This document shows, piece after piece, positions 7,968 through 24,379 of a stretch of DNA of 32,000 nucleotides. The DNA comes from Halomicronema hongdechloris C2206 (lineage in GTDB: Bacteria; Cyanobacteriota; Cyanobacteriia; Phormidesmidales; Phormidesmidaceae), in contig NZ_CP021983.2 in NCBI RefSeq assembly GCF_002075285.3, forward strand, positions 1,440,001 through 1,472,000. Direction: 5' to 3'. Below the pieces are notes generated by a model that ran no database searches, was not told the DNA's origin, and saw only the letters and a list, made by a program, of their open reading frames with translations. Every line of letters starts with the position of its first letter. The first letter of the stretch is position 1. A program made the translations under genes and the position numbers.

Positions 7968-9572
7968 ATGCTTTTTAATTCATACGAATTCATTCTACTA
8001 TTTGTGCCGATAACACTTATCGGATTTTGCTTAGTTACTAGATTGAAGCACCAAAGACTTACAATTTTTTGGCTTGTTATTGCATCTTTTTTCTTCTACG
8101 GCTGGTGGAATCCACCTTATTTACTATTACTGCTGCTATCGATTGGAGTGAACTATATTCTAGGCCAAGCTCTGAATCGAGCTTATATGGCAGAAGATGA
8201 AAGTGTTGGTAAGGTGCTGCTTATCGGCGGCATAGTCTTCAACCTAGGTCTTATCGGCTATTATAAATATTTTAATTTTTTTGTAGACAATGTTAATGCT
8301 ATTGTCGGCACATCATTTAATATATCTGCAATTGTTTTGCCTCTTGGCATTTCATTCTATACCTTTCAACAAATCTCTTATTTAGTTGATAGCCTAGAAG
8401 GGGAGACAAAACACTATAGGTTTATAGATTATTGCCTGTTTGTCAGCTTCTTTCCACAGCTTATTGCTGGTCCTATTGTTAGTCACCAAGAAATGATGCC
8501 CCAGTTCTCTAGAAGGGGCAAATTCGGGATTAGTCAAGAGAGCCTAGCAATAGGCTTAACAATTTTTTCAATAGGCTTATTTAAAAAGGTAATTCTAGCA
8601 GACCAAATTGCTCTCTATTCAACCCCTGTATTTAATGCTGCTGATCAAGGTGTTTCGCTGACAATAGCAGAGGCTTGGATGGGAGCATTAGCGTATACTA
8701 TGCAGATTTATTTCGATTTTTCTGGCTACTCTGATATGGCGATTGGCATAGCTCGGTTATTTAGTATTCAACTGCCTCTTAACTTTAATTCCCCTTATAA
8801 AGCAGTCAATATTATTGATTTTTGGGGACGCTGGCACATGACATTAACACGCTTCCTTACACGTTACTTGTATAATCCAATCGCCCTAAGCTTGTCTCGA
8901 AAACGAGCCCGTGATGGAAAAGACCTGATTAAGAGAGGAGTTGGAAGCTTTAGTGCGTTTACTGAACTACTGGCATTTCCTACCATCACTACCATGTTCC
9001 TGGCCGGACTCTGGCATGGTGCAGGCTGGCAGTATATTGTATTTGGTTTACTTCATGGGTTGTATCTTACAGTAAATCACGGCTGGCACATGTTACTTAA
9101 GGCATTTGGCCAGGTTCCTAAGAAGACAACATGGTGGCAAAATCGGCTGGGTCATCTACTAACTTTTGGGTGTGTTGTCGTAGCAATGGTTTTCTTCAGG
9201 GCACCGAGTGTTAATAATGCCATAACTATTTTGTCAGCGATGGTAGGAGCTAACGGTATATCTTTAAGCGATGGTGCCTTATTTACAAATCAGCTATTCA
9301 GCAATGCAAAATTGGGACTCTTATGGATAGTAGCTTTAATGGCAATTACGTTTTTATGCCCCAATACACAGGAATGGCTATCAGAACATAGTCCTGCTTT
9401 GGATTATAAACCCATAAATCCTACCAAGCCTTTTCATAACTGGGCTAGTTATATTCAGAAACATTTGAAATGGCAGCCTAATCACGCTTGGGCTATGATA
9501 ACAGCTGCAATTGCTGTAACAGGTTTTCTAGGACTTTCAGGGGTTAGTGAATTTATCTATTTTCAATTCTAA
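7968..9572 (+). CDS. Membrane-bound O-acyltransferase, AlgI/DltB/PatA type (MBOAT)
   Basis: Polytopic. Alignable by eye to AlgI along its whole length: LPLGISFYTFQQISYLVD, FFPQLIAGPI, ALAYTMQIYFDFSGYSDMAIG, and FWGRWHMTLTRFL with the invariant His (codon 8835-8837), then GLWHGAGW. Confidence 0.9.
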   Translation: MLFNSYEFILLFVPITLIGFCLVTRLKHQRLTIFWLVIASFFFYGWWNPPYLLLLLLSIGVNYILGQALNRAYMAEDESVGKVLLIGGIVFNLGLIGYYKYFNFFVDNVNAIVGTSFNISAIVLPLGISFYTFQQISYLVDSLEGETKHYRFIDYCLFVSFFPQLIAGPIVSHQEMMPQFSRRGKFGISQESLAIGLTIFSIGLFKKVILADQIALYSTPVFNAADQGVSLTIAEAWMGALAYTMQIYFDFSGYSDMAIGIARLFSIQLPLNFNSPYKAVNIIDFWGRWHMTLTRFLTRYLYNPIALSLSRKRARDGKDLIKRGVGSFSAFTELLAFPTITTMFLAGLWHGAGWQYIVFGLLHGLYLTVNHGWHMLLKAFGQVPKKTTWWQNRLGHLLTFGCVVVAMVFFRAPSVNNAITILSAMVGANGISLSDGALFTNQLFSNAKLGLLWIVALMAITFLCPNTQEWLSEHSPALDYKPINPTKPFHNWASYIQKHLKWQPNHAWAMITAAIAVTGFLGLSGVSEFIYFQF

Positions 9573-9707
9573 TATAATCATCATACTCATTGAAAATTGA
9601 AATTGAAAATATAGTTTAGTCAAATATATTGCCGGTGTCAGCTTCCATTTCTGATTTGATAAGCAAAATGAGAGTCTTGTCTAGCTTAAAAGATAGTCCA
9701 AGGTCCT

Positions 9708-10826
9708 ATGTCTTCATATGCTAAATCATTAAAGTTCTTCGCTGGCTTTTCAGCTATTTACCTAGCAGCTGTTGCTTGCATTAACCTTTGGCTAGATCCT
9801 TTCGGTTTGAGAAATCACGGAGGTAGACTTAGTCATGCTCGTCTTGTGAAGGCCATTCAGGTTAACCGACTTAATCCAGATGTTGTTTTCGTTGGTTCTT
9901 CCAGTGTAGCTATTGGCCTAAATCCTGAACATGAAGTGTTTCAAGACTATAAATCAGTTTATAACTTAGGTATCTTCGGGGCAAATTTTTACGAGTTAGG
10001 GCATTATTTTCGGCATGCAGCACATGGGGATAACCTCGAGAAGGCCTTTATTGCCTTAGACTTTTATGGATTTAACAAGTTCATGGAGGTAAAGCCCGGT
10101 TTTTCGGAAAGTCGACTAAATTCAAGGCGAATGCATCCTCGAGACTTTCTAGAGCTATATTTTTCGTTAGAGGCCTTGACTCTAATTAGGGATGCCAATG
10201 TAGAAGAAAACTATTTTGCTTCCAACGGACTTCTACCTAAACTTCAAAATTGGAATATACAAGACCGAGAAGAACTTTTTGCTAAGCATCTACAGCAAAA
10301 TATATTAGAGGAAGGAGGGATGTATTATGGAGATTATGCCCTTTCTGAGAAAGCATTTCAAGAATTAGCCCATGTTGTCTCACTGGCTCAAAAAGAAAAC
10401 ATCGACATTCAATTTTTCCTGCCTGCTCCTCATGCTACTCTTTTTCATTATGTCTTAGATACTCCCGAATATTGGACAATCTACAAAGAGTGGTTGCGGA
10501 AAATCGTCAAAATTTACCCAGTATGGGATTTTTCAGGATGTAATAGAATTACGACAAAGTCTGTAGATTCAAGTGAAGAGTATTATGAAGATCCACTTCA
10601 CTTTACTCCCAAAGTAGGGAGCCTGATGATTGAACGAGTATACGCACGTGAGTCAAGTGAACTTCTACCGAAATTTGGTATCTATGTAACGCCTGATAAT
10701 GTTGATAGCCATTTGAAGGAAGTTGAAAAGCAATGTGATCGCTGGAAACAGGAAAATCCAAAGACTATTGCATGGCTAGAAAGTCTAAACCTTAAGCCAG
10801 CATTAATATCTTCTCGTCAAGAATAG
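9708..10826 (+). CDS. N-terminally anchored SGNH/DltD/AlgJ-like putative extracytoplasmic acyltransferase, paralog 1
   Basis: Single N-terminal hydrophobic anchor. VVFVGSSSV is a candidate nucleophile block, and EDPLHFT is a DxxH block like SGNH block V, the DltD Asp/His or the AlgJ/AlgX DxHW. It lies directly downstream of the MBOAT. Confidence 0.6.
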   Translation: MSSYAKSLKFFAGFSAIYLAAVACINLWLDPFGLRNHGGRLSHARLVKAIQVNRLNPDVVFVGSSSVAIGLNPEHEVFQDYKSVYNLGIFGANFYELGHYFRHAAHGDNLEKAFIALDFYGFNKFMEVKPGFSESRLNSRRMHPRDFLELYFSLEALTLIRDANVEENYFASNGLLPKLQNWNIQDREELFAKHLQQNILEEGGMYYGDYALSEKAFQELAHVVSLAQKENIDIQFFLPAPHATLFHYVLDTPEYWTIYKEWLRKIVKIYPVWDFSGCNRITTKSVDSSEEYYEDPLHFTPKVGSLMIERVYARESSELLPKFGIYVTPDNVDSHLKEVEKQCDRWKQENPKTIAWLESLNLKPALISSRQE

Positions 10827-10905
10827 TTGAATGGATTAATCAGGAGCCTAGGAAATAGTATCTATAAACTTTACTCACTTATGATTTTTACTTATCTTTA
10901 GCAGC

Positions 10906-12009
10906 ATGTCTTATCATAGTAAATTTCTCAGGAACTTCTTTAGTTATACTGCAGCTTGTATGCTCGTTGTCTTGGGAGTTAATGCATTTGTAGACCCTTA
11001 TGGAATTCGTAAGGCTGGAGGACGAGTTGCAAATGATCGATTAGTCAAAGCTATTAAGGTTTCTCAAATAAAACCAAAGGTTGTCTTTTTAGGATCATCA
11101 GGTGTTGCTAGGGGACTTAATCCTAGTCATACTGCTTTTTCAGAAAGTAGACCAGTTTACAATTTGTCTCTTTTAGGGGCTAGTATTTATGAAATAAAGC
11201 GATATTTTGACTACGCGGTTGCGCATAACAAACTTGAGCATGCCATTATTGGCCTTGATTTCTATGCATTTAATGACTCTAGGGAGGTAAGGCCTGGTTT
11301 TTCAGAAACAAGACTGAATTCCCAATATATTTCCCCTAAAGATCTTTTAGGCATTTATCTATCTCTTGATTCCCTCAACCTAGTAATGAATCCTGATCAG
11401 AGAGGATATTATTTCGCTGATGATGGAACATATGAGCATCGAATTCAAATAGGCATAGAACGCCAGTTCGAGATAAAGCTTATTGAAGACTTTACTCAGT
11501 CCGAACAAATGTATTGGAACTATAAGTTTTCTGAGGCAACAATTGGTCACTTTCAGTCAATAGTTGAATCTGCCGATTCAGAAGGGGTTAGAGTTGATAT
11601 TTTTCTACCTCCGTTGCATGCAACTTTATTTTATTCTGCAATGATGTCTAACTACTGGCCAACTTACGAAAAATGGTTAAAGAGAATTGTTAATATTCAT
11701 CCTGTTTGGGATTTTTCGGGATGTAATACTATTACTACCGAGCCAATCAGCGGAGAAATGAATTGGTTTGAGGATCCATCCCACTATACTGAAGAAGTAG
11801 GTGATCTAATCCTTAATAAACTATCTGAAGCTGAGAGTGGAAAGTCACTAAGAGACTTTGGCCAATATGTGACATCTGAAAATGTAAATGAGCACCTCCA
11901 ACAGGTTAGATCTCAATGCCAAAAATGGTCAAATTCTAACCCTAATATTATGCATTGGCTAGAGGAACTTAACCTAATAAATCGAATGAAGATCTCAACA
12001 GCAGAATAA
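10906..12009 (+). CDS. N-terminally anchored SGNH/DltD/AlgJ-like putative extracytoplasmic acyltransferase, paralog 2
   Basis: Collinear with the previous protein end to end. Shared blocks: VVFLGSSGV, YNL, LDFYAFN, PGFSETRLNS, FLPPLHATLF, HPVWDFSGCNTITT, EDPSHYT. Confidence 0.6.
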   Translation: MSYHSKFLRNFFSYTAACMLVVLGVNAFVDPYGIRKAGGRVANDRLVKAIKVSQIKPKVVFLGSSGVARGLNPSHTAFSESRPVYNLSLLGASIYEIKRYFDYAVAHNKLEHAIIGLDFYAFNDSREVRPGFSETRLNSQYISPKDLLGIYLSLDSLNLVMNPDQRGYYFADDGTYEHRIQIGIERQFEIKLIEDFTQSEQMYWNYKFSEATIGHFQSIVESADSEGVRVDIFLPPLHATLFYSAMMSNYWPTYEKWLKRIVNIHPVWDFSGCNTITTEPISGEMNWFEDPSHYTEEVGDLILNKLSEAESGKSLRDFGQYVTSENVNEHLQQVRSQCQKWSNSNPNIMHWLEELNLINRMKISTAE

Positions 12010-12087
12010 AAATATAATTTTATGAATTATCGAACCTATTATTTAATAATAGGATAGTAGAAGCTAAAGTCATCATCTGGCAACACC

Positions 12088-13623
12088 ATGGAATTTCCAT
12101 TACAGCATAAAACTTCAATTTCTTTCTCTTCAGGTGATCTTGACCTTTTTAGCAAGGCAAGCCATGATCGTAACCCTTTGCATCTCTCCGAAGACTATGC
12201 TCGCAAAACTCCATTTGCCCAACGTGTAGTTTTTGGCGTTTTGGGTGGTTTATCTTGTTTAAAGTATTTACAGGACCGAGCAGATTTTCAACTGAAAAAA
12301 ATTTTTCTAGAATTTTTAGGTCCCTTATTTATTAATCAGTTTTATTCATTAGAGATAACTGAAAGTTCACAGGAGCAAGTAACTGCGCGGATTTTCGATG
12401 GTAGACGCCTAATGCTAAAAATGAAAGTGAATTTTCGACCAGGAAATTCACCGACCATTCAGGCCGTATCAGCACAAGCCTCCCGTACCGAGGCTGTAAT
12501 GTTGTCGCCATCAGAACTGACTAGGGGCATTAAGTTGGATGAAGCAACATATTGCCCTAATCTTGAAGCATTACGTATATTAGCTTATCAACTGAGTTTA
12601 CCTGAGAAAGGTGTTGGTGAAGTAGAGATAGCCACATTACTTTGGGCAAGTTACTTCGTGGGAATGGAGTTACCAGGATTCCAAGCACTTTTTTCTAAGC
12701 TAACTCTTAGCTTTGAAAATTCTTTACCCAATCTAAAAAAACCATTTTCCTATACTAGTTCATTAACCTATTTTGACGACCGCTACAATTTACTGCGCAC
12801 AAAAGCTGAGTTATCTGATAACGGTAAATCATTTGCTACTGGAGAAATCCAATCCTTTATTCGCCCTACTTCAACTATTAGTACTTCTCAATATCTCGAG
12901 ACTCTACTGCCGAGTTCTGAATTCTTAAAGGGAAAAGTAGCCTTAGTAACAGGAGCTAGTCGAGGTTTAGGGGCTGCAATTGCACAATCGCTAGCATTGC
13001 AAGGATGTACCGTTCTAGCTAACTTTCTCCGAAGTTATCCTGAAGCTAAATCGCTACAGAAAGCGCTAGAAAATGCACCTGGCCAAGTTATTTTGATGCA
13101 AGGTAATGCAGCGGAATTATCTTGGTGTCTTTCAGCTAAGCAGGAAATTATTTCTAGATATGGCAAGCTAGACTTCTTGATTTGTAATGCTTGTCCTGCT
13201 ATATTACCCCTCTGGTTAGAGCCAACAGCTGTTGATCGGGTGAATGAATATGTCGCTCAAAGCCTAGCTCTCATGAGTGTACCAATGTCTACCTTTCTCA
13301 GTTTAGTATCTGAGAGCTTAGGCTGGAACATTGTTATTTCATCAATCTATGCCAGTCAAGCTTTTCCGGCAGACTTACCTCACTACGTTATCGCGAAATC
13401 TGCAATTGAAGGTCTCACAAAGGTAGCAGCCTCTGAATACAAGGATATTAACTTTGCTATAGTAAGACCTCCCAAATTGCTGACTGATCAGACAAACACG
13501 CCTATCGGTAGACAAAATGCTATATCTGTCGAGAAAGTTGCCGTTTCTATCACAGAGCATTTAAGAAATGTATCTAATAAAACTCAGATAGATATATTAG
13601 AGAATATTTGGGAAATAGATTAA
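12088..13623 (+). CDS. Fusion protein: MaoC-like (R)-hydratase/dehydratase hotdog region + classical short-chain dehydrogenase/reductase
   Basis: N-terminus ASHDRNPLHLSEDYARKTPFAQRVVFGVL is the MaoC hydratase D-x-N-P-x-H motif. The middle, about 150 aa, is probably a second hotdog repeat. C-terminus has KVALVTGASRGLGAAIA (TGxxxGxG), ISSIYAS and YVIAKSAIEGL (YxxxK). Confidence 0.8.
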   Translation: MEFPLQHKTSISFSSGDLDLFSKASHDRNPLHLSEDYARKTPFAQRVVFGVLGGLSCLKYLQDRADFQLKKIFLEFLGPLFINQFYSLEITESSQEQVTARIFDGRRLMLKMKVNFRPGNSPTIQAVSAQASRTEAVMLSPSELTRGIKLDEATYCPNLEALRILAYQLSLPEKGVGEVEIATLLWASYFVGMELPGFQALFSKLTLSFENSLPNLKKPFSYTSSLTYFDDRYNLLRTKAELSDNGKSFATGEIQSFIRPTSTISTSQYLETLLPSSEFLKGKVALVTGASRGLGAAIAQSLALQGCTVLANFLRSYPEAKSLQKALENAPGQVILMQGNAAELSWCLSAKQEIISRYGKLDFLICNACPAILPLWLEPTAVDRVNEYVAQSLALMSVPMSTFLSLVSESLGWNIVISSIYASQAFPADLPHYVIAKSAIEGLTKVAASEYKDINFAIVRPPKLLTDQTNTPIGRQNAISVEKVAVSITEHLRNVSNKTQIDILENIWEID

Positions 13624-13664
13624 TGGTTTTTCCCTAGGAATTGAATTTCAGTTTCCTAAAGATA

Positions 13665-14811
13665 TAGCAATCCCAGTTGATTTATGAACAAGGTGAATAT
13701 TCTTCTATTTTAGAAAAATCGAACTTTTGATGATCTATAAAGAACTCAAACAGATACTTTACAGCGGGGAAAGAACGACACAACCTCCAAAATCTTCTCA
13801 ATGAATTTTTGGCTTGTAACCAAACATCTTCCACTGGATTTTGTTCTGGTGAATTGGGTGCAAATAGAATACATTTGAATTGCCATTCTGTCTCTTCCTT
13901 CCCATGATTGACTGTAGCTAAAAAATCTTTGATCTCTTGTGACTTATGATAACTAGCGCCATCCCAAATTAATGCGATTTGCTTCCCAGGATTTTGTTCC
14001 TGCAAGTACTTCATAAAAGCAACTGTATTCTCTCCATTCCCTTTCTCGTAAGGATGCAAAATAAATTCTTTTGTTTGATAGTTTAATGCGCCATAATATG
14101 TTTGCCTGATTCTCTCGTTTGTAATAGGGATTTCGATTCGCATATCTGTCTTGCCCCAGACATATCCACAAACATCACCCCAAAGGAGATGACACTCATC
14201 CAAAAAAAGTACAATCAATTCCCCAGACTCAATTTTGAACTGGTTTTGACGGATAAATCCTTGGATTTCTTCTCTTTTTTTTTGACTAGAGCTGGATCAG
14301 ATTTCGGGTTGGTTTTTTGAGATTTCTTCCAACTAATACCTGCTTCCGAAAAAAGTGTATAGTAGCTTTGCTTAGACTTGTAAATCACATCATAATGTTC
14401 ATCTAAATATGAAACTAATTCATCAAAGTTCCAGTAGTTTCTGGTTCTCAGCCACGAGATAATTTCTGTACGATCATCTGGGGTTAGGTAACTTTTTGAT
14501 CCTTGGTAGCCGAGTTTAATACCTTCAATGCCTTGTGCTTCGAATCTGTTCTTCCAATATGTAATAAAAGACTTGTTTATTCCCAGAAATTTGGTAATCT
14601 TAAAATATGGCTCACCCTCCAATGCCATTTTTACAGCCAATGCTCGCTTAAGCTCTCTTGAATCAGGATTACTACTTATAAAGTCTGATAGAATAGCACG
14701 ATTATCTACTTTTTGTTGGTGTTCTAATTGAAAACTATTCATGAGTACAACTGTATTGACAGCTTGATGATATTTATATACTACCCATTCTAAACTCATT
14801 TAGGGTTGCTA
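13665..14811 (-). mobile_element. IS630-family insertion sequence with TA target-site duplication
   Basis: Imperfect terminal inverted repeats start with TAGCAA (13665-13688 versus the reverse complement of 14788-14811, 17/24 matches by eye). TA flanks each end (13663-13664 and 14812-13). The size, about 1.15 kb, fits one two-frame DDE transposase. Confidence 0.8.
13682..14799 (-). CDS. IS630-family DDE transposase, two overlapping frames joined by a probable programmed -1 frameshift
   Basis: OrfA (14215-14799) has an HTH-type N-terminus. OrfB (13682-14218) carries DECHLLWGD, IWDGASYHKS and NSPEQNPVEDVW (D, D, E). The orfB frame is -1 relative to orfA and stays open back through an A9 run (T9 on the + strand, 14275-14283). 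Slippage there gives ...ALVKKKREEIQGFIRQNQFKIESGELIVLFLDECH. Confidence 0.8.
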
Positions 14812-14989
14812 TATGGCGTAATCTATTTTTTAGAAACTGGAATTCCAGTTGTACCAGAGCATGAACTCTCATAAACTGCACAAGATCTGGACGGTAGTAA
14901 CTCAGGAATAATTTCAACTACTCCAGAGTAACTGATAATGGCAGCATCTTAACTTTTTAAACAAGATATATATTGTCTGTCTTTTATCC

Positions 14990-15084
14990 AAAAATAACCA
15001 ATCAGCATGGCCAAAAAGGCAGCTTTACATAGAAAATTTTTACGATATGAGTGCAATATCTTCTGTCTTTTATTGGTTATTTTT
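14990..15084. repeat. Perfect 13-bp inverted repeat (AAAAATAACCAAT / ATTGGTTATTTTT), each arm preceded by the 12-bp direct repeat TCTGTCTTTTAT
   Basis: Inverted-repeat arms at 14990-15002 and 15072-15084 with a 69-nt spacer. Direct repeats at 14976-14987 and 15062-15073. Both lie in the 570-bp AT-rich spacer between the IS and the kdsB-like gene. Confidence 0.6.
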
Positions 15085-15434
15085 CATATATTTCTAGTGA
15101 AAGACTGTATAAATAAACTTTGAGAAATGACATAGATTAAATTCTATAAGGAACTTCTTGATTGTATGAAATCGTATTTTTTAATTATACTAACATAAAG
15201 ATTTTCTGAGATAATCTTATACATTTAAAAGTAATCTGTTTATTTTTAAGGATTACATAGATTATCAGCTAAATGAAGTTGATTTCATAAAAATCGGATT
15301 TTGCCATGTTTTTTTAATAAAGCGATTCATTATATCTAGATGTGGAATACGATATTCGCTTATCCTATTAATGCTCGGAAAACTCCAATATGAAATTGGA
15401 GAAAAACGGATATTTGAGGAGTTTAGAGCTAAGA

Positions 15435-16166
15435 ATGATGGCTAAAGTGACAGGGGTTATACCTGCCAGATATAAATCAACTCGCTTCGAGGGTAAGCCT
15501 CTCGCTATTCTTGAAGGCAAAACCATGATCCAAATGGTTTATGAGAAATGTTGTAAGAGCAAACTCTTAGATCAGATCATGGTTGCTACAGATGATCAGC
15601 GTATCTACGATAACGTCTTATCTTTTGGTGGAAATGCAATTATGACCGAAACCAATATTGCCACTGGAAGTGATCGTTGCTATGAGGCCGTTAAGTATGA
15701 TAGCTGTGATATTGTAGTCAATATTCAGGGTGATGAACCACTCATTGATCCGAACGTCATCGATATTTGTATTCAGGCCTTGATAGATGCACCAGAAGCA
15801 GTGTGCTCAACCCCAGTAGTCAAATCAAATAACCCAGACGAGATTAATTCTCCCCATGCAGTTAAAGTAGTACTCAATAAAAAACTTGAAGCACTTTACT
15901 TCTCAAGATATCCAATCCCTTTTTTTCGTAATAATCTAGATGATGAAATCTATTATCGACATATTGGATTGTATTGCTATCGTAAATATTTCCTAGAACA
16001 ATTTGTCTCTATGGCCCAAACCTTTTTAGAACTTTCCGAGTCATTAGAGCAGCTTCGTATTTTAGAAAACGGATATAAGATTCAGTGTTGCCTAGTTGAT
16101 TATGAATCAGTTGGAGTAGATACCCCAGAAGATTTAGAGAAAGTTAAGCGGCTTTTGAAAATATAG
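15435..16166 (+). CDS. kdsB: 3-deoxy-ulosonate cytidylyltransferase (CMP-Kdo synthetase family)
   Basis: Alignable by eye to E. coli KdsB over the full length: GVIPARYKSTRFEGKPL, VATDD, TGSDR, VNIQGDEPL, AVKVVL, ALYFSR, HIGLYCYR, LEQLRILENG, GVDTPEDLEKV. The ORF opens at ATG 15390, but homologs begin just before the IPARY block, so ATG 15435 is preferred. Confidence 0.85.
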   Translation: MMAKVTGVIPARYKSTRFEGKPLAILEGKTMIQMVYEKCCKSKLLDQIMVATDDQRIYDNVLSFGGNAIMTETNIATGSDRCYEAVKYDSCDIVVNIQGDEPLIDPNVIDICIQALIDAPEAVCSTPVVKSNNPDEINSPHAVKVVLNKKLEALYFSRYPIPFFRNNLDDEIYYRHIGLYCYRKYFLEQFVSMAQTFLELSESLEQLRILENGYKIQCCLVDYESVGVDTPEDLEKVKRLLKI

Positions 16167-16205
16167 ATTTTATTATTAATTGAATACTACTGGAACTAAG
16201 AGGAT

Positions 16206-17246
16206 ATGCAGATGTTGACTAAAATTCCGAAGATTTCTTGTTCTCTTTTGGCGGCATTAGATAGTGATTACTCCCTAACAGATGTTCTAAAAAAACTAGA
16301 TATCGTTGGTGTAGATATTATTCATTATGACGTCAGTGATAATGCAAAGACTTTAGATCTTAAGGAGATTAATAAATTACGTACTAGCACCTGCCTACCA
16401 TTTGATGTACATTTAAGTGTCGAAAATCCCGATCCATATCTAAAAGATGTTCAGCTTCAGCCAGAAGATTATTTTTGTCTTCATGTTGAAAATAATCTGA
16501 GCTGGGCACAACTTGAAGAAGTACGACATAAGGTTGGTTGTAATTTTGGTTTGGCAATTAACACAGACACTCCTGTAAGTGATCTATTTGACAAAGCACA
16601 AATTCTCGATTATGTGCTGTTTATGTCTGCCACCCCTGGTGTTTCTGGTGGACAGTTTAACGATCAAGTAATCAGTAAGATCAAGGCATTTCGTCGCGCC
16701 TTTCCAGAGGTTAAAGTGCACGTAGATGGTGGTGTCAACCATTTATCTGCTGCCCTATTAAGAGAGTTAGGAGTTGATGTCCTCATCTCTGGTTCTTACA
16801 TCTTAAAAAATGAAGATTATCTAGTTCAGCTAACTAAGCTGTTTGGTAAGAACCTATACCTGCGTGTTGCCGATATTATGAGGGCTCATGAACAGGTACC
16901 TCGTGTCACCCCAGATACTGACATTTGTCAGACAGTCTTAGAAATGAATACTAAGTTGGTTGGTTGCACTTGTGTCGTAGATCATGACAACCGCTTGCTT
17001 GGTCTAGTGACGGATGGAGATGTTCGTAGAAGATTGATTCTTCAACCTGATTTGTCTAGTCTAAAGGCAAAGGATTTAATGGCAAAGCATCCCTTTGTTA
17101 TTACACCAGATGTGCGACTCCTTAATTTGCTACGGGAACTAGATAAGAGACGTGCAGGATTTGATGTGATTCCAGTTATAGATGCATCTGAACAATGTAT
17201 TGGTCTTGTCTGGTTACGAGATATTATTTCAAGTCACGCTTTATAA
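16206..17246 (+). CDS. Fusion: ribulose-phosphate 3-epimerase-like TIM barrel + KpsF/KdsD-like CBS-domain pair
   Basis: N-terminal about 215 aa carry RPE blocks IIHYDVSD (H-x-D...D), FDVHLS, MSATPGVSGGQF, VHVDGGV and ISGSYI. C-terminal about 125 aa are VADIM...LLGLVTDGDVRRRL...VIPVID...IGLVWLRDI, two CBS motifs resembling the tail of arabinose-5-phosphate isomerase. Alternative start ATG 16212 has GAGGA 7 nt upstream. Confidence 0.7.
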   Translation: MQMLTKIPKISCSLLAALDSDYSLTDVLKKLDIVGVDIIHYDVSDNAKTLDLKEINKLRTSTCLPFDVHLSVENPDPYLKDVQLQPEDYFCLHVENNLSWAQLEEVRHKVGCNFGLAINTDTPVSDLFDKAQILDYVLFMSATPGVSGGQFNDQVISKIKAFRRAFPEVKVHVDGGVNHLSAALLRELGVDVLISGSYILKNEDYLVQLTKLFGKNLYLRVADIMRAHEQVPRVTPDTDICQTVLEMNTKLVGCTCVVDHDNRLLGLVTDGDVRRRLILQPDLSSLKAKDLMAKHPFVITPDVRLLNLLRELDKRRAGFDVIPVIDASEQCIGLVWLRDIISSHAL

Positions 17247-17297
17247 GCTAGCAAACAGATTTCTTGATTCTCTCAGTACATAGATCTAGGTAAGGAT

Positions 17298-18320
17298 ATG
17301 ATTATTAAACTCAGCCAATCTTCTACCGATATGGCTCTAAAGCACCTGGTGAAATGGTTTGCTCAGCAAGATGTTGAAGCCCGTCAGATTAACTGGGGAG
17401 CTCAGGTATTATTGGTTACCTCTTCGAAATGGAAAGGGGACGCTGACTATCTCAAAAGTATAGATGGGGTTGAATCCGTTACTGAGATGACAGCAGATTA
17501 TCAACTCTGTACTCGTAAATTTCAACCTCAAGACACCGTGATTGATTTAGGTGACGGCGTCATTTTTGGTCGTGGTGCAACTGTCATGATGGCGGGTCCC
17601 TGTGCGGTTGAGTCAGAAGACCAAGTCATGCGGACTGCTGAATTTTTGCGTAGTAAGTTTGACATTAAAGTATTTCGAGCGGGGGCATTTAAGCCTCGCA
17701 CATCACCCTACACATTCCAAGGCCTTGCAGATGAAGGACTAAATTTGTTAGCCAAGGTTCGTAAAGAATTTGGCATGAAAATTATCACTGAAGTTAAAGA
17801 TACAACTCACCTGGCAGCAGTCGCTGATGTAGCTGACATCATCCAAATTGGAACCAAGGCCATGTACAACTTTTCCCTTTTGGCTATGTGCGGTCAGCTT
17901 AAGCAGCCAATTGTCTTAAAGCGGGGCTTTATGACAACAATTAAGGAGTTCTTGCAGGCAGCTGATTTTATTCTTAGCAGTGGTAACTCTAAGGTTATTC
18001 TATGCGAGAGAGGTATTCGTAGCTTTGAACCTCAAACCCGTTTTTGCTTAGATGTTTGTTCTGCTGCTTTAATCAAAGAGTTAAGCCATCTGCCCATTGT
18101 TCTCGATCCCTCACATGCCATGGGTATTGCAGCTCAAGTGCCTCTTGTTGCTCAATCAGCTGCGGCTTTAGGTGTTGATGGACTATTAATCGAGACTCAC
18201 CCTGATCCTGCTAATGCAAAGAGTGATAAAGAACAAGCACTGTCTTTTGAGGAATTTGGTCGAATAGTGCCAGTTCTAGATAAAATTTGCACTGCAGTAG
18301 GCCGGAGGCTGATTGCGTGA
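17298..18320 (+). CDS. Type I-beta DAHP-synthase-like PEP-utilising aldolase with Thermotoga-type N-terminal ferredoxin-like domain; substrate uncertain
   Basis: MMAGPCAVES (metal Cys), FRAGAFKPRTSPYTFQGL (a DAHPS-type KPRTS block, not the KANRSS block of KDO8P synthase), IIQIG, VLKRGF, ILCERGIRSFE, LDPSH, IETHPDP. The N-terminal about 90 aa (...SIDGVESVTEMTADYQLCTRKFQPQDTVIDLGD) resembles the regulatory domain of T. maritima DAHPS as I recall it. Confidence 0.75.
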   Translation: MIIKLSQSSTDMALKHLVKWFAQQDVEARQINWGAQVLLVTSSKWKGDADYLKSIDGVESVTEMTADYQLCTRKFQPQDTVIDLGDGVIFGRGATVMMAGPCAVESEDQVMRTAEFLRSKFDIKVFRAGAFKPRTSPYTFQGLADEGLNLLAKVRKEFGMKIITEVKDTTHLAAVADVADIIQIGTKAMYNFSLLAMCGQLKQPIVLKRGFMTTIKEFLQAADFILSSGNSKVILCERGIRSFEPQTRFCLDVCSAALIKELSHLPIVLDPSHAMGIAAQVPLVAQSAAALGVDGLLIETHPDPANAKSDKEQALSFEEFGRIVPVLDKICTAVGRRLIA

Positions 18321-18985
18321 GTTCCCTTCTCCTTGACTCCATTCTTGATAGTTGCCAAGCAGTCATCTTTGATATGGATGGCGTGATAGCAGATACTGAA
18401 CCACTTAAGTTTCAGGCTTATCAATTTGTATTTCGAGAGGAGTATGGGATTGAGCTACCAATCGAGGATATAGCTTGGCGAGGTATGAAAGAGCAGTCTG
18501 TAATTGCCTATTGGTTCAATAAATTTCAGCTGGTGGGTGATCCTCAGAAACTAATTGAGGATAAGCGAGCTGCCTACCATTCTCTTTTGGTGCAAGGTAA
18601 AATCACAGCAATACCTGGCATCATGGCATTTATCAAATATCTTCGATCGCTGGGCAAGTTGCGGGCAGTTGCCACGAGCTCTAGTTGCCAAGAGGCGGTT
18701 ATGGTATTAGAAGCTCTGCATATAAGGGATGCCTTTCATCAGGTTATAACTCGAGATGATGTGCAAAGAATGAAGCCTGATCCAGAAGTTTATCTTGCTG
18801 CAGCATCAGCCTTAGGAGCCAATCCATCTAATTGCATAGTCTTTGAAGATAGTCAGTCGGGAGTTGGTGCTGCTAAGGCAGCTGGAATGTTTTGTGTGGG
18901 AGTGTTAACTTCATTTTCAAGAAAATCTCTTGGGCCCGTCGACCAAGTAATCAATGATTTCACAGATTTAGCTATAAATTTTTAG
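18317..18985 (+). CDS. HAD-superfamily hydrolase, subfamily IA (beta-phosphoglucomutase/sugar-phosphatase-like)
   Basis: Motif I VIFDMDGVIADTEP, motif II AVATSS, motif III KPDPEVY, motif IV VFEDSQSGVGAAKAAGM. The in-frame GTG at 18317 overlaps the upstream stop (GTGA, 18317-18320), which suggests translational coupling. The ORF track opens at 18287. Confidence 0.8.
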   Translation: MSSLLLDSILDSCQAVIFDMDGVIADTEPLKFQAYQFVFREEYGIELPIEDIAWRGMKEQSVIAYWFNKFQLVGDPQKLIEDKRAAYHSLLVQGKITAIPGIMAFIKYLRSLGKLRAVATSSSCQEAVMVLEALHIRDAFHQVITRDDVQRMKPDPEVYLAAASALGANPSNCIVFEDSQSGVGAAKAAGMFCVGVLTSFSRKSLGPVDQVINDFTDLAINF

Positions 18986-19282
18986 AATTTACAATGGAAA
19001 TGTTTTCTAACCATGGAATATCTCTTTGCGTCATGACTAGAATTTAAGTCACTTTTTTGGCTTAAATCCAAGCTTCAAAAGCTAATAGCAGAGAAAAAAT
19101 CCAGGAATTCTCTCATCTATATCATATAAGTATCTATTAAAATCTTTATAACCCTCAAAATCCTGAAAATGTTTCTAGTTTAGTCCTAAAATTTCTCCAT
19201 TAGTAGAATTCTTAGCCCAAATTTAAGCTTATTGTGGCGAACAAACCTTAATATTGAGACTGTCTATAATTAGAATAAAAAT

Positions 19283-20659
19283 ATGTCTACCAAGTTTCTT
19301 AAAGATACTATCCGGAAAATAATAGAACCACTAGAATCATCGATTTTGTCAGACAAATATTTTGGACTTCAAAAAAGCCTTGGCTATTCGGATAGGCTGA
19401 ATCTAGTTTGTAAGTATGCTCAGAACAAATTCAATTCCCAATCTTCGGAAGCATACCCTGAGATTACTTTCCTGCTTTATTCGAAGGCCTGTGAAAGGTT
19501 GTTAATACCGTTAGTGTTTAATTTATTACAGCGCCCAGAAGTTCAGGATGGAAAGATTCATGTCAATGTGATCGTGTTGTTTGGTATCCATCGCCTCAAA
19601 CTAATGGATTCTAATTTAGAGGAGTTGCAGAAGATGAGATGCCAAATTCAAACGGATTATTTTAGTTTGATACGTGCCTGCTATCAACCTAACCAAAAGC
19701 TAGTTGTGCTTTGCCTAGATCATCGTAAGGTTTATAGATATCACTTTTGGGGTGTCGACACCGTAGATACTTTGAAAAGTCACGGTGTAAGTACACTTTC
19801 TATTCAGCACGGTGGAACTCGTGCTGACAGTGTTGAAGAATTGGCTTCTGCAGCTTCAGATATGGTTCTGGTATGGGGAAAGCGAGTCTACAGAGAAATC
19901 GTGGAAAGATACAACGGAGATCCTCGCAGGTTTCACATAGTTGGTAATCCTTTACATGATCGGTTAGCTAATATTGATAATGTTCAAGTTCAAAGCCAAT
20001 TTAAGGACCACTATCCAGAAGTAAGTTCACAGCTAGGTCAAAAACACGTAGTTCTCTTAGCAACCTGTCTTCATACTGAATACCGAGGCATGGAGAATGA
20101 GGTGCAAATGTATCGAGATTACATTCGACATATTTATAGTAGTATTGATTTTTCTCGTACACTACTTCTAGTTAAGATGCATCCTCTCGATACATTAGCT
20201 CCTAATCTTTACATTCAAGCTATTCCTGATGAGAATTCTAAAAAATCAATAATAGTCATTGAGCCTACAGTCTCTAATTTAGATATTTACTCATTATTGT
20301 CAATTTCTGAGCTCCTAATAACCCGTGCCTCAACAGTTGCTGAAGAAGCAATGTTGATGGGAAAAAATGTTATTTCATTTGACCTTTTGCCAGACGGTCC
20401 CTCAAAGAACTATAGGCATTTAGAGGAGTATGGTAGCTACACTACTGTTTATGCAAACCCAGAAAACGAGCTAAAAAAAGCAATCAATTATTCTCTATCT
20501 GAGGCAGTATCAGAGCAGAATAAAAATACTTCTCTCATTGAAGAGGAGTTAACTTGCAGTTTAGATGGTCATTCAACCGATAGAGCTGTCAATGAAATTT
20601 TAACGTACTTTTGGCATAAAAACTATCAAAACTATTATGAAAACGGTTGCACTTGTTGA
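19283..20659 (+). CDS. GT-B-fold protein of the 2-epimerase / capsule-synthesis (KpsS/KpsC, TagF)-like superfamily; candidate glycosyl (ulosonate?) transferase
   Basis: Blocks SIQHGGTRADS, FHIVGNPLHDRL, LLLVKMHPLD (HP motif) and LLITRASTVAEEAMLMGKNVISFD resemble the two Rossmann halves of GT-B enzymes of this superfamily. The exact family was not resolved by eye. Confidence 0.4.
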   Translation: MSTKFLKDTIRKIIEPLESSILSDKYFGLQKSLGYSDRLNLVCKYAQNKFNSQSSEAYPEITFLLYSKACERLLIPLVFNLLQRPEVQDGKIHVNVIVLFGIHRLKLMDSNLEELQKMRCQIQTDYFSLIRACYQPNQKLVVLCLDHRKVYRYHFWGVDTVDTLKSHGVSTLSIQHGGTRADSVEELASAASDMVLVWGKRVYREIVERYNGDPRRFHIVGNPLHDRLANIDNVQVQSQFKDHYPEVSSQLGQKHVVLLATCLHTEYRGMENEVQMYRDYIRHIYSSIDFSRTLLLVKMHPLDTLAPNLYIQAIPDENSKKSIIVIEPTVSNLDIYSLLSISELLITRASTVAEEAMLMGKNVISFDLLPDGPSKNYRHLEEYGSYTTVYANPENELKKAINYSLSEAVSEQNKNTSLIEEELTCSLDGHSTDRAVNEILTYFWHKNYQNYYENGCTC

Positions 20660-21896
20660 TGCTAATCACGGTCGCGGTCATCATCTAACTTACATGAGGT
20701 TCTTTTGTAGAACATTACTAGAGTTAGGATATCGCACCTTGGTGTTTTATCCAGAACCTGATGCTGTGATAGATTGGCTCAAAATACATTTTCCTGAACT
20801 TATAGAGAACTTATATGTCTTTAGAATTGACGAATATGCTCATCGTAAAGTACCTCTAATCGGGAAAATTTCCTCTAAATTGCAACCTCTAGTGGTAATA
20901 GCGAGATGGAGGTATACCAACAGAATTATCAAGCAGGCAGTGAAGGCAGTTGGGCATGAACCTGATTTAGTATTCTTCAACTGGCTAGATAATTACTTAA
21001 GTTATTTTCTATCTCATCATCTTATCGACCTGATTTTCCCATTCAAGTGGTCTGGCATTTACTTTAGACCAGGAGACTTACGCTTCAAGAAGCGCACTTT
21101 CCTATCTCACTATGCGATCGCAAGATCACCTCGGTGTCAGGCCTTGACTCTTTTGGATGAAGAATTCTCTAGGATCATAGAAGATAAGTTAAATATCCCG
21201 ATTATTCCATTTCCAGATTTAACTGATGAAACGCCACCTGATACAGCACTAGGTGTTATTAAGCAGATAAAATTGCAAGCAAGGGACAGAAAAATTATTG
21301 GACTTATTGGTTCTTTAAGTAAGCGAAAAGGACTCTTTACTTTTCTTGAAGCAGCTCAAAGGCTAGTTGAAAAAGATTATTTTTTTGTCCTTGCCGGTCC
21401 TCTTAATAAAGCAACCTTTCACCAGGAATATGATCAAAAACTTTCAGATGAGTTTCAAAGATTGGAGAGAATGATAAAATCACCACCAGAAAATTGCTTT
21501 TTCTATCTCCAATCAATTCCAGACGGTGCCGAATTTAATGCTTTTATAAATATATTTGATATTCTATTTGCAGCCTATGAAAATTTTCCCTACAGTAGTA
21601 ATATTTTGACCAAGGCAGCTGTTTTTCGGAAACCGATTATTGTAAGTGATGGTTTTTGCATGGAAAAGAGAGTGAAAAGATTTCAGTTTGGATTGTCAAT
21701 TCCAGAAGGAAATGTAGCCGCATGTGTTAAGGCAATTCAACTTCTGTCTGAGTCATCTTCATCAGATGGTCTTAGCCTTGAATTCGATTTTGAAGGCTAT
21801 AAACAGCTTCATTCGACAAAGAGACTTGGCGAGATCTTTACAGCACTTTTAGGAGATCATGAGCTAAAGACAGCATTGAATGCTAGTAATTCTTAG
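20637..21896 (+). CDS. Glycosyltransferase, GT-B fold (GT4-like)
   Basis: MKTVALVDANHGRGHH N-terminus. C-terminal half has IGLIGSLSKRKGLFTFLEAAQRL...FFVLAGPL...ILTKAAVFRKPIIVSD, typical of the donor-binding domain. It overlaps the upstream gene by 23 nt. Confidence 0.6.
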   Translation: MKTVALVDANHGRGHHLTYMRFFCRTLLELGYRTLVFYPEPDAVIDWLKIHFPELIENLYVFRIDEYAHRKVPLIGKISSKLQPLVVIARWRYTNRIIKQAVKAVGHEPDLVFFNWLDNYLSYFLSHHLIDLIFPFKWSGIYFRPGDLRFKKRTFLSHYAIARSPRCQALTLLDEEFSRIIEDKLNIPIIPFPDLTDETPPDTALGVIKQIKLQARDRKIIGLIGSLSKRKGLFTFLEAAQRLVEKDYFFVLAGPLNKATFHQEYDQKLSDEFQRLERMIKSPPENCFFYLQSIPDGAEFNAFINIFDILFAAYENFPYSSNILTKAAVFRKPIIVSDGFCMEKRVKRFQFGLSIPEGNVAACVKAIQLLSESSSSDGLSLEFDFEGYKQLHSTKRLGEIFTALLGDHELKTALNASNS

Positions 21897-21940
21897 GAAT
21901 GTTTTATTTAGAATAATGAGTCTATACCCAGGGAGTAGAG

Positions 21941-22996
21941 ATGAAAGTATTAGTGACTGGTTCAAGCGGCTTAATTGGTTCGGAAGCCGTTGAGTACTAT
22001 GATCGGGAGGACCATGAGGTCATTGGCGTAGACAATAACATGCGCGCTGAGTTCTTTGGTCCTAAAGGGGATACCATTTGGAATCTCAGTCGCCTGAAGG
22101 ATAGTACTCAAAACTTCGAACATCATAATATTGATATTCGTGATCGTGCTGCAGTCTTTCAGTTATTTGAGGAAAAGCCCTTCGATCTCATTATCCATTG
22201 TGCTGCACAACCCTCCCATGACAGGGCTTGCCAGATTCCTTTGCTAGACTTCGAAGTGAATGCATTGGGTACGGTTAATCTTCTAGAGGCAACTCGCCAA
22301 TTTTGCCCTGAGGCCGTATTTATTCATATGAGCACTAACAAAGTTTATGGAGATGCTCCTAACGAGGTACCTCGTATCGAATTAGAAAAGCGCTACGATT
22401 ATGAGCGCTCTGAAGACTATAATGGCATTTCGGAAGAATGTCGGATCGATCGGTGTTTACATTCTCTATTCGGTGCATCTAAGGCTGCAGCCGACATTGT
22501 AGCTCAGGAGTATGGTCGCTATTTTGGCATGAAGGTGGGAATCTTTCGCGGCGGTTGCTTGACTGGACCTTCTCACTCCGGTGTAGAGCTGCATGGCTTT
22601 TTATCTTACCTAGTGAAAGTAGCTGTCAATGGTGATACTTACAAGGTGTTTGGCTATGAAGGCAAGCAAGTTCGCGATAATATCCATAGCTATGATGTGA
22701 TCCAAGCATTTGAAGCATTTCGTTGTAATCCGCGCCCTGGGGAAGTTTATAATCTAGGAGGTGGACGAGGAAATAGTGTTTCTATCTTGGAAGCCTTTGA
22801 TCTAGTCAGTGACTTAGTAGGGCGAAAAATCCAGTGGATCTATGTCGACCAAAATCGCATCGGTGACCATATCTGCTATATTTCTGACCTCAGGAAAATG
22901 AAATCACATTTTCCTGGGTGGGATATTACTCGTAGTCTAGGCAATATTTTAGAGGAAATGGTTGAGGCCGAACAGGCACGATTAGTTCGGGTCTAA
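21941..22996 (+). CDS. Extended SDR, CDP-paratose/tyvelose 2-epimerase-like NAD-dependent epimerase/dehydratase
   Basis: [14 protein letters not shown] (GxxGxxG), [68 protein letters not shown]. The expected YxxxK Tyr is Phe (codon 22469-22471). Confidence 0.75.
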
Positions 22997-23067
22997 TAGA
23001 ATCAGATCTGGACAGATATGATGTATCGGTGATTCTGACAGTTAATAGCCTTGAGTCTTAAGTTAGC

Positions 23068-23100
23068 ATGGGTGGGAATTCACCCGCCCATATGCTTTTT
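23068..23100 (+). terminator. Rho-independent terminator after the epimerase gene
   Basis: ATGGGTGGG-aattca-CCCGCCCAT is a 9-bp GC-rich stem (one G-U pair) with a 6-nt loop, followed by ATGCTTTTT. A T-run is present only on the + strand. Confidence 0.65.
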
Positions 23101-23195
23101 GAATTCTCGAATTTCAGAGACCTGTAAATTCTCATAGAAAACTTACAATAGGCCTTACTATTTCTTGAAATTAATTGTAAAGATTAAGATTTACG

Positions 23196-24359
23196 ATGTT
23201 TAAATTAGCTATTTCTAGAAGGCTAAATGTCCTAAACTTAGTTTCTGATAAACCGACATCAAAAACTTGGCTCCCATCTTTGGATGGATTACGTGCTATT
23301 GCACTACTGTTAGTTTTTCTAGAGCATGTCACCGGCAATGTTTTTGTCGAAGACGCTAGTAACGATGGATCTATTTCTACCGCTTTTTTGAATTTTGGTG
23401 ATGCTGGAATGGGTCGCTCAGGAGTTTATCTGTTTTTTGTACTGAGTAGTTTCCTGTTAACATCACAGCTACTTCGTCCGGGCATAAGACTTAAAAGTTT
23501 TCAGCTATGGATTAATTATGTATATAAACGATTGATCAGAGTCTATCCATTATATGTTTTTGTTTTAGTAGTCTATACTATTTTTTCTAGCTTCCAATAT
23601 AACATTCAAGACTTTTTTGAGCATGTAACTTTACAAGAGGCTGGAAATCATTTCTGGACAATTCCAGTAGAAGTAAAATATTACATATTGCTACCCAGCA
23701 TTGCACTCATAATAACCAAGCTTTTGAGGCGTAGACTATCGCTAGTTCTTATCGCTTTTACCGGAATTTCAATTATACTAAAGCTATTTGAATCGTCCAT
23801 TTTGTCTCTGGATCGTTTATCGCTTTTACCTCATTTGCCGATCTTCTTTATTGGTTCTATAGCAGCTTTAATTCATGTGGATTTATTTAGCAAGAGGGAC
23901 ATTGGTGTCAAATATAAGACCTGGATGGAGATAGTATCTATACTTTCAATACTCGCCATACTACTTAGCTATAAAACTGCTGCCAGTTCCTTTCTTTGGA
24001 ATCTTATTTTTGGCTATGAAATGCCAGAAATTCCTTCAAATCATTGGTTATATATCCTACATGGATTGCTTTGGTCAATCTTTCTGATATCTCACTTAAA
24101 TGGAAGAGGTTGGATAGGCGGTTTGTTAGCTTGGAAGCCACTACGATATATCGGTGTAATTAGCTTTGGTATGTATCTATGGCATATTGCTATCTTAGGT
24201 TATCTAAATGCTCATTTAGCTGTGCCTAGCATGATTAAATTTATTGCTATTTTCTGTGTTACATCAGCTGTTTCTACAGTGACTTACATTATGATTGAGA
24301 GACCTATAACGAAATTTAAGTTTCCATTTAACCAAAAATCTTACTACTTGACTAGATAG
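23196..24359 (+). CDS. Acyltransferase family 3 (OafA/WecH-like) integral-membrane O-acyltransferase
   Basis: LPSLDGLRAIALLLVFLEH N-terminal signature. About 10 predicted hydrophobic helices. ISFGMYLWH near the C-terminus. Confidence 0.8.
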   Translation: MFKLAISRRLNVLNLVSDKPTSKTWLPSLDGLRAIALLLVFLEHVTGNVFVEDASNDGSISTAFLNFGDAGMGRSGVYLFFVLSSFLLTSQLLRPGIRLKSFQLWINYVYKRLIRVYPLYVFVLVVYTIFSSFQYNIQDFFEHVTLQEAGNHFWTIPVEVKYYILLPSIALIITKLLRRRLSLVLIAFTGISIILKLFESSILSLDRLSLLPHLPIFFIGSIAALIHVDLFSKRDIGVKYKTWMEIVSILSILAILLSYKTAASSFLWNLIFGYEMPEIPSNHWLYILHGLLWSIFLISHLNGRGWIGGLLAWKPLRYIGVISFGMYLWHIAILGYLNAHLAVPSMIKFIAIFCVTSAVSTVTYIMIERPITKFKFPFNQKSYYLTR

Positions 24360-24379
24360 AAATTGCTAGATAGAAATTG
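24352..24379. repeat. Perfect 14-bp tandem duplication CTAGATAGAAATTG x2 spanning the stop codon of the AT3 gene
   Basis: 24352-24365 and 24366-24379 are identical. The TAG stop of the AT3 gene is at 24357-24359. Confidence 0.9.

Follow-up and report, generated by a model that had tools for sequence, protein, structure and literature searches.

A ribulose-phosphate 3-epimerase-type barrel joined to a KdsD-like CBS pair belongs to a sugar-acid gene module found in cyanobacteria and other phyla

A stretch of 32,000 nucleotides from Halomicronema hongdechloris C2206 (contig NZ_CP021983.2, positions 1,440,001 to 1,472,000; the whole stretch is called the window here) contains a gene at 16206..17246 on the plus strand (ATG start, 346 aa) that raises a simple question: what does a sugar-phosphate epimerase barrel do when it is joined to the regulatory tail of an isomerase, and in which pathway? 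The initial annotation had described the protein as a domain swap, in which the CBS pair typical of arabinose-5-phosphate isomerase is attached to a barrel of the ribulose-phosphate 3-epimerase (RPE) type instead of a SIS domain, and had proposed a different entry substrate for an ulosonate pathway under similar control. The gene, called RPE-CBS in the following, was analyzed by open reading frame (ORF) call, Pfam, NCBIfam, an AlphaFold2 model and Foldseek. The results make it very likely that the gene is part of a conserved module of three or four genes for a 3-deoxy-2-ulosonic acid resembling 3-deoxy-D-manno-octulosonate (Kdo), with RPE-CBS probably being the regulated first enzyme. Such a pathway is proposed because a phosphoenolpyruvate (PEP)-dependent aldolase, a phosphatase for sugar-acid phosphates and an enzyme forming a cytidine monophosphate (CMP)-sugar occur together. 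For the reaction itself our proposal is tentative: RPE-CBS may act as a 2-epimerase that converts erythrose-4-phosphate to D-threose-4-phosphate, the product being destined for a surface polysaccharide.

The N-terminal half matched the Pfam profile Ribul_P_3_epim (PF00834) over residues 9-199 (16230..16802, plus strand) with an E value of 2.3e-35, and the match covered positions 1-197 of the 198 in the profile. TIGR01163 (rpe) was matched below its cutoff, and the residue comparison likewise pointed to an RPE-type (beta/alpha)8 barrel. Two CBS stretches (PF00571, E 6.7e-14) were found from residue 221 onwards. The CBS pair spans residues 221-340 and, together with a preceding KdsD-type linker (FGKNLYLRVADIM), forms a tail of residues ~213-340 (16842..17225, plus strand). 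An AlphaFold2 model for which 19 relatives were used had a mean pLDDT of 89.7 and a pTM of 0.84. Foldseek comparison of this model with the PDB matched the barrel to RPEs of known structure (TM 0.79-0.86, normalised to target). For the tail, the top matches were 3k2v, 3fna and 4o9k (TM 0.84-0.87, normalised to target), which are structures of the CBS pair alone from arabinose-5-phosphate isomerases. No SIS match was detected with NCBIfam, where the KpsF and KdsD models cover residues 212-342 only. Thus the RPE fold of the N-terminal half is upheld by the full-profile match and by structure, and the CBS tail by Pfam, NCBIfam and structure matches.

The tail is specifically related to KdsD and KpsF. 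Among all CBS-containing NCBIfam families, its best matches were KpsF (TIGR00393, E 5.7e-18), KdsD (9.5e-18) and GutQ (8.7e-13), and the next CBS family followed at E 1e-6. Comparison with a KpsF-family protein revealed 41% identity over 129 aa, and the similarity begins already in the SIS-CBS linker of that protein (FGKNLYLRV vs LGRNLFLHV). Together with the structure matches, these values bear out the earlier assignment of the tail, with the linker included. We also scanned the collection with the motif G[LI][VI][TS]D[GT]D[IVL]R[RK], which is the CBS block of the family alignment. Most matches were limited to tail residues ~213-343, and the two that were examined are canonical KdsD genes adjoining canonical KdsA. 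The GLVTDGDVRR-type motif is best regarded as belonging to KdsD, and "domain swap with KdsD" is a fair description of the protein. The CBS pair is kept in every clade except a phage-like short form. This RPE-only relative (P0051, 216 aa, from phage-like contigs) stops exactly after the shared linker, which suggests that the fused form is ancestral and that the short form lost its tail.

KdsD, KpsF and GutQ (SIS plus CBS) have the linker and the CBS pair in common with RPE-CBS and hold the same place of first enzyme, beside an aldolase of the family of 3-deoxy-D-arabino-heptulosonate (DAH) 7-phosphate (DAHP) synthase (DAHPS) and Kdo-8-phosphate (Kdo8P) synthase and near a KdsB-type cytidylyltransferase. 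In contrast to these isomerases, RPE-CBS has an RPE-fold catalytic domain and no SIS domain, and metal-assisted epimerization is expected instead of SIS isomerization. Since KdsD carries the same CBS module on a committed first enzyme, feedback by a CMP-ulosonate on the CBS pair, as raised in the initial annotation, would be a reasonable idea. The structure 4o9k is presumably such a CBS pair with CMP-Kdo bound.

Is the barrel then an ordinary RPE? H40 and D42 (IIHYDVSD), H69 (FDVHLS) and D174 (VHVDGGV) were invariant among 19 aligned family members. The same was true for P144, G145 and G148 (PGVSGGQ), G175, G176 and S195-G196-S197 of the phosphate loops. Thus, the catalytic and phosphate-loop residues listed in the initial annotation are real. 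Alignment to human and Synechocystis RPE identified H40, D42, H69 and D174 as the RPE metal ligands, with the two acid/base Asp, and these four residues are also retained across ~90 fused relatives. One cushion Met had been reported as lost, and S71 does stand in its place (HLM to HLS). This was an undercount, however, that overlooked S44 in place of the first cushion Met (DVM to DVS) and a shortened loop. Of the three Met cushions, those on strands 2 and 3 are missing, the canonical MDGxFVPN loop is shorter by 3-7 residues, and PGFGGQ is changed to PGxSGG. The Met losses and the loop shortening hold in the ~90 fused relatives down to 25% identity, whereas all stand-alone RPEs in the same alignment, canonical or divergent, retain HLM and MDG. 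Allulose-6-phosphate epimerase also retains the Met cushions and the MDGxFVPN loop.

It could be argued that RPE-CBS is a plain Rpe with a regulatory tail, which would boost erythrose-4-phosphate for a genuine DAHP synthase, with DAH or the DAHP of the shikimate pathway as product. The top family matches are indeed RPE models and the four catalytic residues are present; the partner aldolase lies above DAHPS cutoffs, one DAHPS-like gene of the partner's clade stands alone in a housekeeping context, and one locus with the module is close to tyrA and an aminotransferase gene. We nevertheless consider this very unlikely. All NCBIfam RPE cutoffs were missed (119.4 bits vs 212.6 for the rpe equivalog TIGR01163, 129.7 vs 165 for NF004076), and identity to solved RPEs, including the Synechocystis enzyme, is ~25-28%. 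Moreover, a role in supplying the shikimate pathway is not compatible with the phosphatase gene of the operon, and the RPE reaction is a near-equilibrium housekeeping step and a poor control point. With Rpe and AlsE (PF00834), RPE-CBS has in common the fold, the His/Asp/His/Asp metal site, the two acid/base Asp and the phosphate-binding Gly loops. It differs from Rpe in its sub-cutoff scores, the PGxSGG loop, the CBS pair and the setting in a glycan cluster. The fused family as a whole has lost the two Met cushions and the MDGxFVPN loop. We therefore regard RPE-CBS as a member of the fold family that lacks two hallmarks of a functional Rpe and is not a standard Rpe.

To see how widespread the fusion is, we searched 1.84 billion cluster representatives exhaustively and without a profile, which returned 56 proteins at E <= 1e-30. 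From the best 150 matches, ~80 representatives (50% identity clusters, 315-360 aa) were taken into an alignment with the query, and the signature of the fused family is present in nearly all of them. The architecture, described before as unusual, is thus real, but its rarity had been overestimated: the fusion is uncommon, not unique. The idea of extreme rarity was dropped, as the 6 species of a genome scan reflected the pattern of the cyanobacteria-like subgroup and the wider search found many more. In the source annotations, members are called "CBS domain-containing protein" or "ribulose-phosphate 3-epimerase". The NCBIfam search gave no model specific for RPE-CBS fusions, and literature searches yielded no characterised member and no paper on the fusion.

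The neighbouring genes give the pathway context. In the window the order is KdsB-type gene, RPE-CBS, DAHPS-like gene, HAD-IA phosphatase gene and glycosyltransferase-like gene, and the first four roles correspond one-to-one to KdsB, KdsD, KdsA and KdsC. The KdsB-type CMP-ulosonate synthetase (cytidylyltransferase; 15390..16166, plus strand) scored 300 bits on NF003952 (cutoff 193) and 202 bits on TIGR00466 kdsB (cutoff 155). Its best PDB match was the capsule enzyme KpsU (1gq9, E 5e-52), and the KdsB motifs are retained. The ORF as listed has 258 aa, with homology from about residue 19 (MAKVTGVIPARY). Because relatives have 240-242 aa, the real start is probably ~16-18 codons further downstream, which would make 15390-15440 surplus. 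Behind RPE-CBS follow a type I-beta DAHPS-like aldolase with an N-terminal ferredoxin-like domain (17298..18320, plus strand; NF006421, TIGR01361) and a HAD-IA phosphatase of the beta-phosphoglucomutase family of hydrolases (18287..18985, plus strand, start codon uncertain; PF13419, E 1e-32), which holds the place that KdsC has in the Kdo pathway. The glycosyltransferase-like protein (19283..20659, plus strand) belongs to the BFO_1060 family/surface carbohydrate biosynthesis type (NF046086, E 2e-16; TIGR04396, E 2.5e-9; both under cutoff). Its gene comes after the module in all cyanobacterial loci with sufficient downstream flank (L009, L011, L012 and L014), and the protein is a candidate transferase for the CMP-sugar.

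We corroborated the context at other loci. For synteny we compared 16 distinct loci that contain a family member with sufficient flank: six cyanobacteria-like loci (the window, L009 and L011-L014, with L013 labelled Oligoflexales), metagenome-assembled genomes (MAGs) of Clostridia (L001) and Proteobacteria (L008), a marine contig (L003), an Elusimicrobiota locus (L005), phage-like contigs (L006), a viral contig from IMG/VR (L017), two Bacteroidota-like contigs (L098 and L100) and two further loci (L102 and L103). A DAHP_synth_1 gene was found beside the RPE-like gene at every one of them (16/16); at L102 a single cytidylyltransferase gene lies between the two. A phosphatase gene was located downstream in 11 of the 16 loci. 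In seven of these it is of the HAD-IA type and follows the aldolase gene (the window, L001, L008, L009, L011, L012 and L014), and L098, L100, L102 and L103 have a genuine phosphatase of the KdsC/YrbI family. A CTP_transf_3 gene was adjacent in 10/16. This pairing is far too consistent across phyla for chance, and the gene is part of a sugar-acid module, not of central metabolism. The suggested tie to ulosonate-pathway genes, and not to the pentose-phosphate pathway, is therefore supported, by the flanking KdsB-type, DAHPS-like and HAD phosphatase genes and by the aldolase at every locus, next to a protein in which both the RPE fold and the CBS pair are supported. With the Kdo pathway (KdsD-KdsA-KdsC-KdsB) the module shares the four roles and a similar operon, and the KdsB-type and some KdsC-type proteins are true family members. 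It differs in the RPE-fold converter, in the aldolase, which is of the DAHPS type (tetrose phosphate), and in the HAD-IA phosphatase of the window.

The type of the aldolase is central for the assignment. The partner, which is 100% identical to a protein of H. hongdechloris C2206, scored 380 bits on NF006421 (cutoff 335) and 319 bits on TIGR01361 (cutoff 268), whereas KDO8P_synth gave just 130 bits (cutoff 314). The protein aligned end to end with the Thermotoga maritima type I-beta DAHPS, N-terminal regulatory domain included (E 2e-85), and the catalytic barrel was nearly gapless. KPRTS and the metal ligands Cys (C102), His, Glu and Asp are retained. Kdo8P synthases have an extended beta7-alpha7 loop, DAHP synthases do not. 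The partner can be classified as DAHPS-type, not Kdo8P-synthase-type. Unlike the T. maritima enzyme, it is encoded beside phosphatase and cytidylyltransferase genes, and this implies that a free sugar acid is made, not a shikimate precursor. Throughout the partner clade GAR is replaced by G(T/A)K and GGRR is lost. These changes (GAR to GTK in the partner) were considered as markers of a new substrate and rejected, as a DAHPS-like protein inside the clade (L099, 58% identity), which lies in a housekeeping context and has no RPE neighbour, shares them.

With this aldolase in place, the main rival to our proposal can be weighed, namely a non-orthologous route to ordinary Kdo. Here the barrel would make arabinose-5-phosphate, either by isomerization of ribulose-5-phosphate or by 2-epimerization of ribose-5-phosphate, and the DAHPS-like protein would be a Kdo8P synthase. 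The module does mirror KdsD, KdsA, KdsC and KdsB role by role, its cytidylyltransferase lies above the KdsB cutoffs with the motifs intact, and its CBS pair derives from KdsD. Several of the triad loci have genuine KdsC-family phosphatases, one of them beside an MsbA-like transporter and glycosyltransferases. Conversion of ribose-5-phosphate to arabinose-5-phosphate would likewise be a 1,1-proton transfer beside a carbonyl, and some archaeal type I-beta DAHP synthases take arabinose-5-phosphate weakly. We still regard this as unlikely. The partner scores as a DAHPS (319-380 bits) and falls far short on KDO8P_synth, it has KPRTS rather than KANRS, and its barrel runs almost without gaps along the T. 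maritima enzyme. Nor would the exact epimerase dyad of RPE be expected to persist in an aldose-ketose isomerase. Furthermore, the Geitlerinema MAG (L014) encodes a true KdsA-KdsC/YrbI fusion of 470 aa at 15985-17397 (424 bits vs a cutoff of 242), and the RPE-CBS module lies in that same cluster. This co-occurrence, which sets the module apart from the Kdo pathway, would make it redundant as a source of Kdo, and because of it the DAHPS-like gene cannot just be taken for this organism's Kdo8P synthase. Canonical KdsA is common in cyanobacteria, with at least 120 cyanobacterial KdsA proteins of 76-100% identity among the matches listed. Canonical kdsA-kdsD pairs were found at L033 and L087.

A second gene bears on the substrate. 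An RraA-like gene, in most cases overlapping the RPE gene at the latter's start, is present in 7/16 loci, among them L001 (7365-7997), L003 (7351-8001), L005 (7361-7999), L008 (2891-3517), L017 (12514-13152) and L102 (7647-8282). The product belongs to the class II aldolase/oxaloacetate decarboxylase family, and its best NCBIfam match is an archaeal hexulose-6-phosphate synthase/RraA fusion. At loci with this gene the cytidylyltransferase is of a weak PseF-like type and not of the KdsB type. The barrel could accordingly epimerize another keto-sugar phosphate, such as 3-hexulose-6-phosphate or a heptulose-7-phosphate, with an unlinked or RraA-like enzyme making the acceptor of the aldolase and a different acid as the result. 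The translational coupling of the RraA-like gene upstream and the altered cytidylyltransferase would agree with this, and Met loss and loop shortening could give a larger, not a smaller, pocket on the C1 side. However, the cyanobacterial and Bacteroidota-like loci have neither the RraA-like gene nor a further conserved enzyme, so the two-gene core must suffice, and there is no conserved candidate for an isomerase. We judge this explanation improbable, too.

Which reaction remains for the barrel? RPE chemistry is a 1,1-proton transfer at the CHOH next to a carbonyl in a phosphorylated substrate, with a metal-bound enediolate. In the product of the aldolase, the carbonyl would be flanked by the carboxylate and a CH2. 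Since such a 2-keto-3-deoxy acid offers no epimerisable centre, the epimerase would have to work before the condensation, and since the conserved module has no isomerase, it would most simply act on the aldose phosphate itself. The viral locus L017 has just a cytidylyltransferase in addition to the core. In the simplest reading, the enzyme would turn a central metabolite directly into the acceptor of the aldolase. Erythrose-4-phosphate can be seen as ribulose-5-phosphate minus C1. If its phosphate is bound at the same place, the aldehyde O1 and the O2 would meet the metal where O2 and O3 of ribulose-5-phosphate do, and its C2-H would come to lie at the place of the C3-H, between both Asp. The changes in RPE-CBS concentrate in the loops after the metal ligands, which appears to fit a substrate altered at the C1/C2 end. 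From these comparisons we infer an entry substrate other than ribulose-5-phosphate, and from the tail a KdsD-like control, as had been suggested.

In the proposed pathway, RPE-CBS would convert D-erythrose-4-phosphate to D-threose-4-phosphate. The DAHPS-like aldolase would then join D-threose-4-phosphate and PEP, with the same facial selectivity as DAHPS and Kdo8P synthase, to 3-deoxy-D-lyxo-heptulosonate-7-phosphate. The HAD phosphatase would take off the phosphate, and the KdsB-type enzyme would form the CMP-sugar. The CBS pair would probably sense the CMP-ulosonate or another nucleotide and throttle the committed step. Type I-beta DAHP synthases take D-threose-4-phosphate in vitro. The lyxo C7 acid would have the configuration of Kdo at C4, C5 and C6 (L, L, R in Fischer terms). 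DAH derived from erythrose-4-phosphate has the opposite C5 to Kdo, and a Kdo-like ring calls for a threo, not an erythro, tetrose phosphate. The proposal would thus account for the composition of the module: KdsB-, KdsC- and KdsD-type parts would stand beside a DAHPS-type aldolase because the ring of the product is Kdo-like, and an epimerase would be needed at all because threose-4-phosphate is required. It is possible, if rather doubtful, that RPE-CBS is a dedicated erythrose-4-phosphate 2-epimerase, the first known, and that the module is the route, so far missing, by which CMP-3-deoxy-D-lyxo-heptulosonate, Kdo's C7 homologue, is made.

Several points weigh against the threose-4-phosphate proposal. 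The assignment of the substrate rests on parsimony, and the proposal does not account for the RraA-like gene in 7/16 loci. The partner may be an ordinary DAHPS that uses erythrose-4-phosphate, as the L099 gene indicates, and then erythrose-4-phosphate and D-threose-4-phosphate would compete. We know of no report of free 3-deoxy-D-lyxo-heptulosonic acid as a component of bacterial glycans; only its 7-carboxy form, Dha, is reported as one. Finally, compact triads of RPE-CBS, DAHPS-like and KdsC-family phosphatase genes were found at L098 (4951-7716), L100 (5000-7473) and L103 (5001-7502) with no adjoining cytidylyltransferase gene. The two Bacteroidota-like triads lie outside glycan clusters, the L103 triad is beside an MsbA-like ABC transporter, and one triad is the one near tyrA and an aminotransferase. 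The MsbA-side triad and the scattered Bacteroidota-like triads look like core lipopolysaccharide genes, and ordinary Kdo fits them equally.

The constituent folds and the logic of the Kdo pathway are known, while the widely dispersed module itself is uncharacterised. If a C7 homologue of Kdo is made, the RPE superfamily would gain a new activity, and the glycans of bacteria and phages a new acidic sugar activated as its CMP form; for Dha, whose origin is unsolved, there would be candidate genes to test. 3-Deoxy-D-lyxo-heptulosonate is a possible precursor of Dha. Genes of the UDP-glucose-dehydrogenase family stand beside the module at L003, L008 and L017, and the encoded enzymes could oxidise C7; this is a hint only, as such genes are common in glycan clusters. 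Reviews on plant cell walls from 2012 and 2025 list the biosynthesis of Dha and its activated form as unknown. Literature searches on an erythrose-4-phosphate/threose-4-phosphate epimerase, on Dha genes and on the ligand of 4o9k gave nothing relevant beyond reviews on Dha. If the product is Kdo instead, two enzymes of the Kdo pathway, both antibiotic targets, would be replaced in the module by non-orthologous ones. On either reading the current names mislead: "ribulose-phosphate 3-epimerase" or "CBS domain-containing protein" for RPE-CBS, with "3-deoxy-7-phosphoheptulonate synthase" for its partner, wrongly place the two in the pentose-phosphate and shikimate pathways.

Some loci point to further uses of the module. 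At L001 (6568-13586) and L006 (7378-12571) the RraA, RPE and DAHPS-like genes continue into an acetolactate-synthase-like enzyme dependent on thiamine diphosphate and a short-chain dehydrogenase/reductase (SDR). At L001 a gene of the CDP-glucose pathway (glucose-1-phosphate cytidylyltransferase) lies directly upstream of the module. Here the 2-keto acid may serve as acyl-anion donor for a branched-chain sugar of the YerE type, which would be a second use. The viral locus L017 (9938-14939) has the order RPE-CBS, DAHPS-like, cytidylyltransferase, RraA-like, UDP-glucose-dehydrogenase family and epimerase, and this core contains no isomerase. L017 and the phage-like L006 and L007 contigs combine the module with many small unassigned ORFs, which implies virus-directed synthesis of its sugar. 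In the two Elainellaceae loci, L011 (8845-13499) and L012 (2268-6906), we also observed two KdsB-type paralogues, which stand on either side of the module. The one behind it is ~38% identical to the KdsB-like protein of the window, and the L011 copy lies above the KdsB-type NCBIfam cutoffs.

In the window, the module is preceded by an element of the IS630 family (13662..14814, minus strand) that sits between a MaoC-SDR gene and the KdsB-like gene. It is bounded by imperfect terminal inverted repeats of 27 nt (13662-13688 and 14788-14814), and its transposase is split in two minus-strand ORFs (14215-14799 and 13682-14218), both matching NF033545. At the closely related L009 no transposase gene was called in the corresponding gap of 417 nt. 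The element is inserted upstream and stands outside the pathway. A scan of 14800-19400 for promoters and terminators gave counts no greater than in shuffled sequence. The whole polysaccharide cluster lies in an island of low GC content (~5,000-24,500; 36-42% vs 52-59% in the flanks), bordered on one side by a PAS histidine kinase gene, which recurs on the left side of L009, and on the other by a GT4 glycosyltransferase gene and glgB. The composition suggests that the island was acquired horizontally. At 5599-13623 the island carries a probable polysaccharide acylation set, which consists of an FkbH-like protein (642 aa), an MBOAT protein (534 aa), a weak DUF1574-like protein, a 367-aa protein without assignment and a MaoC-dehydratase/SDR fusion (511 aa). 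At L009, an ORF of 84 aa behind the FkbH-like gene could encode a carrier protein.

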